Shown piece after piece: positions 53,944-56,900 of a stretch of DNA of 64,000 nucleotides. Below the pieces are notes generated by a model, which did no database searches, was not told the DNA's origin, and was given only the letters and a program-made list of their open reading frames with translations. The stretch spans positions 4,453 through 68,452 of the forward strand of contig JBBRBD010000003.1 in assembly GCA_038206135.1 (NCBI GenBank). The letters run 5' to 3'. Made by a program: the position numbers and the translations under genes. The first letter of the stretch is position 1. Each line of letters opens with the position of its first letter. This DNA comes from Patescibacteria group bacterium. GTDB taxonomy: Bacteria; Patescibacteriota; Microgenomatia; UBA8517.

Positions 53944-56900
53944 GTAAGCTTAACGCCTTACGGCGCTTCCACTGCATGCCGATCAACCTGGTAGTCTGCC
54001 AGGAGTCTAATGACGAGTTCTAATCTTAGGGTCTGCTTCCCACTTAGATGCTTTCAGCGGTTATCAGATGGGAATGGTGGCTACCCGGCGTTGCAACTGA
54101 CGTTACAACCGGCACACCAGGGATTCCCCCAGCCTGGTCCTCTCGTACTGAGGCCAGCTCCCTTCAAAACTCGAACGATTCCACCGGATAGAGTCCGAAC
54201 TGTCTCACGACGTTCTGAACCCAGCTCACGTAGCACTTTAACGGGCGAACAGACCGACCCTTGGCACCTTCTCCAGCGCCAGGATGTGCTGAGCCGACAT
54301 CGAGGTAGCGAACCGCACCGTCGCTATGGACGCTCGGGTGCGACTACTCTGTTATCCCCGGAGTAGCTTTTATCCATTAAGCTCCTTCCGCAACCATTGC
54401 GGAATGGAGGATCACTAAGACCGACTTTCGTCCCTGTTTGGCATGTCTGCCTCACAGTCAAGCTGGCTTAAACCTTTATGCTTTGCCCACGATTTCCATC
54501 CGTGGTAAGCCAACCTTTGTATCCCTGCGTTACGATTTGGCAGGGTACCGCCCCAGTAAAACTGCCAATCTGACACTTTTCCCGAGCCGGATTACGGCTC
54601 TTAGGTAAGATTGAGAGCATCTCAAAGAGAGGTGTTTCATTGGCCTCTTGCGAGTCCCTCCTACGCTAAACAGTTAAAACACTTCAATCGATGCCAGAAT
54701 ACAGTAAAGCTTCACGGGGTCTTTTTGTCCTGGTGGAATTAGGCCGCATCTTCACAGCCACTGCAATTTCGCCGAGTGAATCCTTAAGACAGTTATTTGA
54801 TCGTGACGCCATTCGTGCGGGTCGGAACTTACCCGACAAGGAACTTCGCTCAAAATTAATATTAAATATTAATCGGTTTGTTACTCCTATTAGAGAGCGC
54901 TACCACGTTTAGTAGCGTCTTCATGTCGCCATGAAGGTCGGACTATATCATCACCTTTTTACGGGTGTTTGACGTAGAGTCTCTGAGGATTCCAAACTAC
55001 GAATAGAGTTGTTGTCTTAAATTCATTCTTATGAAACGCATTGTTACGCGCATATGAATTAATACGTACCTAAAGAAAATTTTTCATCACAAAACACATA
55101 CCAATTGTTAAATTAGTACATATTAAGGAATCAAGGCTTTTCTGTTAGTAAGTTATTAAAACGTTTCTTCTTCTTTGCGCGCGAAATGCGAATTCTTTTC
55201 TGGAACTTTTGACGCAACTAAATTTGTTTGTAGTTTGGCCTTTCCTGCTGATTGTCTCCACTGATCAGATTGTCACTTTCTTTGTAGAAAGTACTGTCAG
55301 ATACTCGAGAGTTTCCAGCATTTGGTCAAATTTTACTACGGCGGCGAACATATATTCACCGTAGAACAGTTATAGTTACTGCTGCCGTTTACTGGAGCTT
55401 CATTTCAAAGCAACATCTAAATAAATTTAGAAGCACCCATCCACTTAACTTACCAGCACTGGGCAGGCGTCAGCCCGTATACATTATTTTTCAATTTTGC
55501 ACGGACCTGTGTTTTTGATAAACAGTCGTCAAATAGACTTTGGTTGTATCCATCTTGCGATGGAAACCCATCTCCCGAAGTTACGGGTAGTTTTTTTGCC
55601 GAGTTCCTTAAGGATCCTTCTCTCGCTCACCTTGGTCTACTCGACCAGCCCACCTGTGTCGGTTTGCGGTACGGCTTACGATGAATCTCACTACGAACCT
55701 TTTCTTGAAAGCTATTAAAATAAATCATCCTCCTCTCGGAAGACTTTGCACCACTACGACTAGATGTCTCCTTCGAGACAAGCACTCTCACGGATTTTCC
55801 AATGAAAGCTATCGCGGCTTCTGCACCCCACTTCACGAAGGGGCTTATTTTTGTTTGCTCCGTCTGTCCTTAGTTAATAACGATTCATCCCAAGTGCAGG
55901 AATCTTAACCTGCTGTCCATCGACTACGCCTTTTGGGCCTCGCCTTAGGAGCCGACTCACCCGCCGAGGACGAACCTTGCGGCGGAAACCTTGGGCATTC
56001 GGCGGAAGGGATTCTCACCCTCCTTGTGCGCTACTCATACCGACATTCTCACTTCTTACCGCTCCACGACGCTTTACAACATCGCTTCACTGCAATAAGA
56101 ACGCTCCCCTACCACTTTGATAAATCCGAAGAAATATCAAAATCCATAATTTCGGCATAACACTTGAGCCCCGCGGAATCTTCGGCGCAGAAACGCTCGA
56201 CTAGTGAGCTGTTACGCTTTCTTTAAAAGGTGGCTGCTTCTAAGCCAACTTCCTAGCTGTTTTCGCGTTTCCACTTCCTTTACCACTGAGTGTTAATTTA
56301 GGGGCCTTAATTGATGGTCTGGGTTGTTTCCCTTTTGTCGCATCAGCTTAGCCCGATGCGGCTGTCTAGCTACGCAGATACACAACTATTCGGAGTTTGA
56401 TTGGGGTACCTCGCTTGCGCTCAGTAACCCATCCAGTGCTCTACCTTTCGTGTATTTTTCGTTAGCCACGGTCCCCAAAGACCTTTCGGGGAGAGCCAGC
56501 TATCTCCCGGTTCGATTGGCATTTTACCCCTATCCACAAGTCCTCCCAACCAATTGCAACTGATACGGGTTCGGCCCTCCATCAACCTTTCGGTCGACTT
56601 CAGCCTGCTCATGGATAGATCACCGGGTTTCGGGTCTGCCATATGCTTCTATTCGCCCTATTCGGACTCGGTTTCCCTACGCCTGCGCCACACTGGTGGC
56701 TTAGACTAGAAGTATATGGCAACTCGTCGGTTCATTCTTCAATAGGCACGAGATCACACCCACCATTGCTGGTGGAAGCTCTCTCGGTTTGTCTGCAGAC
56801 AGTTTCAGGTTCTTTTAACTGGGCGTCTCGCCCATCTTTTCACCTTTCCCTCACGGTACTAGTTCACTATCGGTCACAGCCTCATATTTAGTCTTGGAGG

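Follow-up and report, generated by a model that had tools for sequence, protein, structure and literature searches.

The window analysed here, the whole 64,000-nucleotide stretch of contig JBBRBD010000003.1, contains on its minus strand a bacterial 23S ribosomal RNA (rRNA) gene that is split by an insert of 507 nucleotides (nt) with the features of a group I intron. The gene itself is full-length (Rfam model RF02541, 2366.6 bits, 53911..57389) and belongs to an rRNA unit at 53711-57565 with the order tRNA-Ala(UGC)-23S-5S. Its alignment to the large subunit (LSU) model is collinear but for one insertion of ~510 nt, located between ...AACUGUUCUA(CGGU) and AGCGAAGUUCC. The 5' exon ends in ...AACUGUUCUACGGU (...CUACGGU) at 55358, the insert runs from the G at 55357 to the G at 54851, and the 3' exon starts at 54850 with AGCGAAGUUCC, which reads on as AGCGAAGUUCCUUGUCGGGUAAGUUCCGACC. 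Not even a shift by 1 base is possible at these boundaries: the intron and the 3' exon begin with different bases, and the 5' exon and the intron end with different ones. Hand alignment to the E. coli sequence CCUAAGGU1931|A1932GCGAAAU1939 and the LSU model alignment both place the insertion between U1931 and A1932. The initial annotation of this DNA had described a 507-nt AT-rich insertion that interrupts an otherwise collinear 23S sequence after CUACGGU, at about U1931, with U as the last exon base and G as the last base of the insert. All of this holds: the site is exact, the U lies at 55358 and the G at 54851, and the GC content is 35.9% in the insert against 49.3% in the exons.

To retrieve inserts at the same position from other genomes, each species was represented by a single genome and scanned for copies of the conserved helix-69 exon in which GGU precedes a base other than A; this yielded at least 119 loci from many phyla. 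A scan of metagenomes with the exon variant of the window itself added 25 further loci, and the flanks at all of these sites are the same as at the site in the window. In 95 of the matches listed, the insert exceeds 100 nt and ends at AGCGAAAUUCC; by length, these inserts group at 248-329 nt, at 447 nt, at 623-791 nt and at 1096 nt. In blastn comparisons, two blocks (nt ~12-120 and ~366-440) are common to the window intron and dozens of the retrieved inserts. The closest relative among the matches listed is the intron L124, with 79% identity over 372 nt; no retrieved relative is identical to the window intron.

The 5' end of the insert pairs with both exons. P1 comprises 7 bp without a mismatch, formed by the exon end CUACGGU with the internal guide sequence GCCGUAG, and has the U•G wobble at the junction; P10 comprises 5 bp, formed by UUCGC with GCGAA of the 3' exon. 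Both pairings had been read correctly in the initial annotation, and what has to be amended is their placement: the guide occupies nt 16-22 of the intron and not nt 8-14, and UUCGC (nt 10-14) does not directly adjoin it, one C standing between the two. P1 is retained in all 48 related introns that were compared with that of the window (49/49 with the window). At exon position 1928, these 49 sequences show 36 A-U and 13 C-G combinations with the guide, the window being among the latter, and 0 mismatches. The conservation of P1 together with the covariation of A1928C and the guide is not due to chance, and the guide is co-adapted to the exon variant of its own lineage, A1928C being matched by a U-to-G change in the guide. 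An intronless (empty) site with the same exon variant would read GTAACTATAACTGTTCTACGGTAGCGAAGTTCC. The potential for P10 averages 4.0 bp in the family against 2.9 bp in shuffled L1 sequences, so that the 5 bp of the window are typical of the family, and a terminal G, as found in the window, is present in 38 of the 49 members.

The catalytic core was sought with covariance models and by comparison. When the whole window was searched against Rfam at the gathering threshold, no group I match was returned, and matches of other Rfam families in the insert were at chance level (E > 3). With permissive filters, however, a search of 801 nt with the general group I model RF00028, the check proposed in the initial annotation for 54851-55357, gave an alignment over the full length of the model (1-253) that scores 36.2 bits (E 1.7e-7) and has 247 nt inserted in P6. 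As this score is below the threshold, RF00028 alone was insufficient, and therefore a family-specific model was built and comparative evidence was sought. The model, R1, is a covariance model from the RNAalifold alignment of 11 ORF-less position-1931 introns (that is, introns without an open reading frame) of other phyla, from which the window was excluded. In these 11 short inserts, RNAalifold predicted P1, P3, P4, P5, P5a/b, P6, P8 and P9, with compensatory changes in 36 of the 60 pairs. Against the 64-kb window, R1 matched at 55365..55138 (83.8 bits, E 4.5e-28) and at 55117..54843 (52.6 bits, E 3.4e-17) and nowhere else; the match comes in two pieces because the P6 extension of the window intron intervenes.

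The core has the pseudoknot topology of P3 and P7, and P7 cannot be encoded in any covariance model. For the covariation test, 49 cores were aligned with MAFFT without regard to structure, and the helices of the window intron were placed on this alignment. The window has canonical bases at each of the 53 core pairs, and these pairs are formed in 96.6% of cases in the 48 other introns, with double changes in 34 of them. Controls in which the 3' partners were slid by 1-3 columns gave only 32-44% paired, and within-column shuffling gave 76.7±0.5%. The P3-P7 core, which the initial annotation had left to be predicted, is thus found, with P7 paired in 49/49 sequences. The P3 helix is also the one that RNAalifold predicts in the relatives, and the pairs of P6 and P6a covary in the family. 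In P7, the elements of the guanosine site are a G375-C418 pair, a bulged A376 and, as the counterpart of the guanosine-binding pair, G377-C417; this pair is G-C in 43 of the 49 members. Of the 82 columns conserved to 90% or more in the 48 other introns, the window agrees with 80, and the suggestion that the element might be degenerate is not borne out, the core being intact.

The anatomy (Table 1) was drawn up manually from the sequence and from the minimum free energy (MFE) fold, and it is in agreement with the Rfam alignment. The assignment of the hairpins P9.1, P9.2 and P9.3 is tentative because they are not conserved across the family.

Table 1. The interrupted 23S rRNA gene and the parts of its intron (nt p of the intron is window coordinate 55358-p)
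Feature	Intron nt	Window coordinates	Strand	Details	Basis
Bacterial 23S rRNA host gene		53911..57389	-	3479 nt including intron, 2972 nt exon	RF02541, 2366.6 bits, model 1-2925
Group I intron, 507 nt, after E. coli U1931	1-507	54851..55357	-		Boundaries, Rfam alignment, GC, family covariance model
P1, 5' exon strand CUACGGU		55358..55364	-	Splice-site U (of U•G) at 55358	Sequence; paired 49/49
Internal guide sequence GCCGUAG, P1 3' strand	16-22	55336..55342	-		Sequence, family comparison
P10, guide strand UUCGC	10-14	55344..55348	-	Pairs with 3' exon GCGAA	
P10, 3' exon strand GCGAA		54845..54849	-	Exon +2..+6	Sequence
P2				None	
P3	28-33/385-390	55325..55330 / 54968-54973	-	6/6 pairs paired in 49/49, 5 covary	
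J3/4				CAAA	
P4-P5 domain, with J4/5 AAA(C) and J5/4 CAA	P4 38-43/107-112; P5 48-51/100-103	55246..55320	-		Rfam alignment, RNAalifold, covariation
P5a/P5b extension	52-99			Within the same domain	
P6 arm	P6 113-114/370-371; P6a 120-128/358-366	54987..55245	-	Rest is extension	
A-rich P6 extension, 229 nt	129-357	55001..55229	-		
P7, 5' strand GAGACU	375-380	54978..54983	-	Bulged A376; G377 of guanosine-binding G-C pair	
P7 pairs	375,377-380/414-418			5 pairs	Each paired 49/49
J8/7 AUGAUAU, then P7 3' strand AGUCC	407-413, 414-418	54940..54951	-		
P8 hairpin, 4-bp stem	391-406 (pairs 391-394/403-406)	54952..54967	-	4/4 pairs covary	
P9 hairpin, 7-bp stem, GCGA (GNRA) loop	422-439 (422-428/433-439)	54919..54936	-		Rfam alignment, RNAalifold, covariation
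3' peripheral hairpins and tail (tentative)	P9.1 441-460; P9.2 461-474; P9.3 485-503	54852..54917	-	P9.3 all A-U	MFE fold
OmegaG, terminal guanosine at the 3' splice site	507	54851..54851	-		Sequence

The structure, the full-length if sub-threshold RF00028 alignment, the match to R1 and the covariation over 48 homologues all speak for the group I identity that had been proposed in the initial annotation. Judged by its sequence, the insert is a true group I intron whose catalytic core is intact, and we consider it very probable that it is an ORF-less member of the group I family at site 1931, residing in a Woesebacteria-like bacterium of the candidate phyla radiation (CPR). Splicing and its mechanism we infer from the pathway established for group I introns. 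P1, with the U•G wobble presented, would form in the 23S precursor between the guide GCCGUAG and the exon end CUACGGU; a free guanosine would bind at G377-C417 of P7 and attack the phosphate after U1931. G507 would next occupy the guanosine site, UUCGC and the 3' exon GCGAA would form P10, and the freed 3'-OH of the exon would attack after G507, releasing the intron. The exons would then be joined, and the continuous sequence ...CUACGGU-AGCGAAG... at the base of helix 69 would be restored.

Some observations weigh against this conclusion: the RF00028 score of 36.2 bits is lower than the gathering score of 50 bits, J8/7 has a U at nt 408 where the family has a near-invariant A, J3/4 has an A instead of a U, P8 is only 4 bp long and P2 is lacking. 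Both of the changes in the joining regions are also found in the relative L131. The intron at the same site in Simkania reportedly stays unspliced (Everett et al. 1999, cited in PMC11270868). This precedent, the two changed near-invariant bases and the lack of an endonuclease, with which selection for mobility would be gone, are what one can adduce for the main rival, an element that is a group I intron by descent and has lost splicing, so that mature 23S rRNA would keep it as an expansion of 507 nt at the base of helix 69. We regard this as improbable, as the core pairs (53/53) and P10 are intact, and so are omegaG, the U•G wobble and, in P7, the bulged A and the G-C guanosine site, and as the 80 of 82 conserved columns that are kept form the pattern expected from purifying selection on catalysis; furthermore, the guide has followed the exon change A1928C. 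The intact core and the guide that tracks a lineage-specific exon change argue for ongoing selection for splicing.

A spliced intron might also depend on help, either from a host protein or in trans from a maturase of a related, endonuclease-bearing intron. LAGLIDADG proteins of related introns can serve as maturases, and such a role might apply here, where the P6 arm is unusually long, P2 is absent, P8 has 4 bp and one base of J8/7 is changed; their maturase role is mentioned in the literature on CPR introns (PMC11270868). Yet no feature of the sequence demands a helper, related introns of 248-330 nt that have this core and no ORF are frequent in various phyla, and neither a second intron nor a LAGLIDADG gene was seen in this 23S gene, so that we give this variant very little weight. 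Least credible, to the point of being nearly dismissed, is an intervening sequence of the enterobacterial type, which RNase III would excise without ligation to leave a fragmented 23S rRNA. The insert is AT-rich and lies in a 23S gene, and short inserts other than introns do occur in CPR 23S genes; these, however, sit at 23IS2 and 23IS4, which are known sites of intervening sequences, whereas 1931 is a group I site (PMC11270868). Moreover, the MFE fold has no long or extended terminal stem between the ends of the insert, such as marks intervening sequences at sites of the helix-25 or helix-45 type, and the group I core is present and backed by covariation. When a group II intron, an intervening sequence and an assembly artefact were considered as candidates for the insert, they were ruled out by the structure and by the inserts at the same site in at least 144 independent loci.

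The absence of a homing-endonuclease ORF, as noted in the initial annotation, is borne out by several searches. The longest ORF on the sense strand of the intron has 38 amino acids (aa), and a six-frame Pfam search of the intron found no homing-endonuclease family and only a spurious antisense match to DUF1347. The best value of a blastx search of the window intron against 104 ORFs from related introns was E 2.9. A protein hidden Markov model (HMM) of 76 LAGLIDADG ORFs gave E >= 2.9 against the six-frame translations, in a test whose control, a deletion derivative of 374 nt, reached only E 0.0016; a DNA HMM of the P6 endonuclease genes of the same lineage matched neither the window nor the 374-nt derivative L126 or L123, and this search thus had no working positive control. 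None of these searches picked up a remnant of an endonuclease gene in the P6 extension. Because the intron has no endonuclease gene, it has no self-driven homing, and presumably it passes on by vertical descent or is moved in trans.

Among the matches listed, about two-thirds of the members encode a LAGLIDADG endonuclease, and these ORF-bearing relatives are of two kinds, with the ORF in P6 or downstream in P8. In the relatives that have the exon variant of the window, the ORF is located in P6. That of L122 is LAGLIDADG_1 (Pfam, E 7.4e-22), and the other P6 ORFs of the lineage are visibly similar to it. The 229-nt extension of the window intron occupies the same P6 loop as the LAGLIDADG_1 gene of its lineage. 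It is on account of this extension that the intron is longer than its minimal relatives: with 507 nt it stands about 200 nt above the minimal ORF-less ones (248-330 nt), and the description of the element as minimal does not apply.

Homologues of the extension were found only in L124 (an intron of 504 nt), L131 (477 nt), L129 (truncated) and L006 (447 nt, Candidatus Woesebacteria), among the matches listed. Alone, the P6 arm of the window folds as a long imperfect hairpin (MFE -63.2 kcal/mol, z -4.38), and the arms of three relatives fold as rods too, with z about -4 each. RNAalifold on the four homologous extensions gave only -4.2 kcal/mol and about 20 pairs, and when the MFE structure of the window arm was mapped onto the relatives, 19-25 of about 75 pairs were broken and 3-6 were compensatory. 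Most likely, the extension is a weakly constrained, rod-like peripheral arm that was left over from the loss of an endonuclease gene or that grew in a permissive loop. One may also speculate that the arm is a lineage-specific functional module set into the loop that otherwise harbours the endonuclease gene, such as a platform for protein binding or a folding chaperone, or else a small hairpin mobile element. The rod shape of the four homologous arms (z about -4) and the arm of L006, in which only the tip is deleted and the flanks can still be aligned, support a functional module; its exact pairs are only partly conserved, which weakens that reading, and we think it unlikely.

The relatives themselves show some variation that is worth recording. 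The genome scan (L001-L119) found 1931 insertions in metagenome-assembled genomes (MAGs) outside the CPR, including, among the matches listed, Actinomycetota/Solirubrobacterales, Eremiobacterota, Acidobacteriota, Nitrospirota, Gemmatimonadota, Bacteroidota, Proteobacteria and Omnitrophota. In one locus of a Rickettsiales MAG (L027, JAMWZD010000005.1), the 23S sequence ...CCUAAGGU is followed by TGTCTCTTATACACATCTT at the contig end, which we take to be a Nextera transposase adapter and hence adapter contamination rather than an insertion. A second type of insert at 1931 starts with GACA...GUUGCC, followed by a hairpin, and is without the GCCUUAG guide; it is carried, for example, by loci of Eremiobacterota (L043, L054, L060, L081, L112) and Solirubrobacterales (L013, L026, L079), and its P1 must be shorter or built differently. 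Five ORF-less introns from non-CPR MAGs (L049, L071, L078, L109, L119) keep the G-C pair in P7 and have ...CA as their last bases, immediately followed by AGCGAAAU; a terminal G is lacking, and no shift of the boundary yields one. Bacterial rRNA introns outside the CPR have been described as confined to a few species (PMC11270868).

In six CPR introns (L006, L121, L122, L124, L140, L142) the guanosine-binding pair is C-G and not G-C, and all six end in A; a C-G pair combined with a terminal G occurs in 0 of the 49 sequences, and two of the six, L006 and L124, have a P10 potential of only 2 bp. This could be a co-variation of the nucleotide site with the terminal base, and thus an altered cofactor specificity, or these introns could be dead. 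L124 also has an insertion of 36 nt between P1 and P3 (intron nt ~24-60), where the window has none; by eye it looks like two small hairpins resembling P2/P2.1, so that P2 looks able to be optional in the sub-family. The 5' part and P6 arm of the window intron (nt 1-388) are nearest to L124 and L006 (79% and 71%), and its P7-P9 part (nt 366-441) is almost identical to L131, unlike L124 and L006. The sequences suggest a mosaic intron, which may have arisen by recombination between intron lineages, or else a fast divergence of the 3' domain in the lineage with the C-G pair and the terminal A.

As for the host, the 3' exon of the 23S gene is 97.3% identical over 941 nt to L006, from a MAG labelled Candidatus Woesebacteria, in keeping with the remark in the initial annotation that rRNA introns are a hallmark of some candidate-phylum lineages, and the 5' exon is 89.7% identical to the metagenome contig L129. 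By these sequences, the host fits a CPR bacterium of the Microgenomates type, probably Woesebacteria-like. Neither a 16S rRNA gene nor a tRNA-Ile gene was found in the whole 64-kb window, and therefore the rRNA genes are unlinked. Several ORFs neighbouring the 23S gene have no Pfam match.

The intron has little significance beyond annotation: the 23S gene should be annotated as two exons, as otherwise rRNA-based tools and primers mishandle it. In addition, it illustrates neatly how a guide sequence co-evolves with a lineage-specific exon change (A1928C). Perhaps more useful are the by-products, that is, the 1931 introns in MAGs of many non-CPR phyla and a CPR sub-lineage, of interest for ribozyme biochemistry, in which the guanosine-binding pair is flipped and the last base is A.

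Position 1931 is a classical site of group I introns. That it is a known one, as stated in the initial annotation, is confirmed by its documentation in bacteria, archaea and organelles (PMC6125680, PMC11270868). In the CPR, group I introns make up 45% of the 23S gene insertions, with 222 ORF-less ones among them, and position 1931 (23IS7) is a hot spot for LAGLIDADG_1, with ORF-containing and ORF-less versions that have very similar flanks (Tsurumaki et al. 2024, PMC11270868); earlier bacterial cases cited there are Thermotoga, Simkania, Coxiella and cyanobacteria. The ORF-less 23IS7 introns of the CPR share with the window intron the host group, the site, the intron class and the absence of an ORF, and relatives with LAGLIDADG_1 are represented by I-ShaI in that study (PMC11270868) and by L122 in the present set. 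The window intron differs from the CPR 23IS7 introns in carrying the 229 nt in its P6 arm, which are seen in four other sequences among the matches listed.

About sixteen introns of subgroup IB4 have been described at LSU/1931 in archaea, such as DPANN (Nawrocki et al. 2018, PMC6125680, Table 1). They have the same site, and in their case, too, RF00028 performed weakly: the general model misses many true introns, family-specific models are needed, and introns with large insertions are found as two local pieces (PMC6125680), as was the window intron with R1. The host of the window intron, in contrast, is bacterial, and its putative label IB4 is taken over from the literature on site 1931 (PMC6125680).

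The short ORF-less introns from outside the CPR, such as L023 (251 nt) and L012 (295 nt), have a homologous core (blastn, nt 16-119 and 366-440) and the same layout of P1-P9 and the guide. Their P6 is a hairpin of 20-40 nt, compared with an arm of 259 nt in the window, and their guide is GCCUUAG for the exon CUAAGGU instead of GCCGUAG for CUACGGU. Like the window intron, the Tetrahymena LSU intron (IC1), the reference for the mechanism, has the U•G in P1 and omegaG, and its P7 combines a bulged A with a G-C guanosine site. The similar J8/7-P7 reads AUGAUAUAGUCCGACC in the window and AAGAUAUAGUCGGACC in Tetrahymena. The two differ in subgroup, insertion site and host, and P2/P2.1 and P5abc, which are present in Tetrahymena, are absent from the window intron. 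Among these systems, the window intron is an ordinary addition to the ORF-less 1931 introns of the CPR, and its sole individual feature is the long P6 arm.

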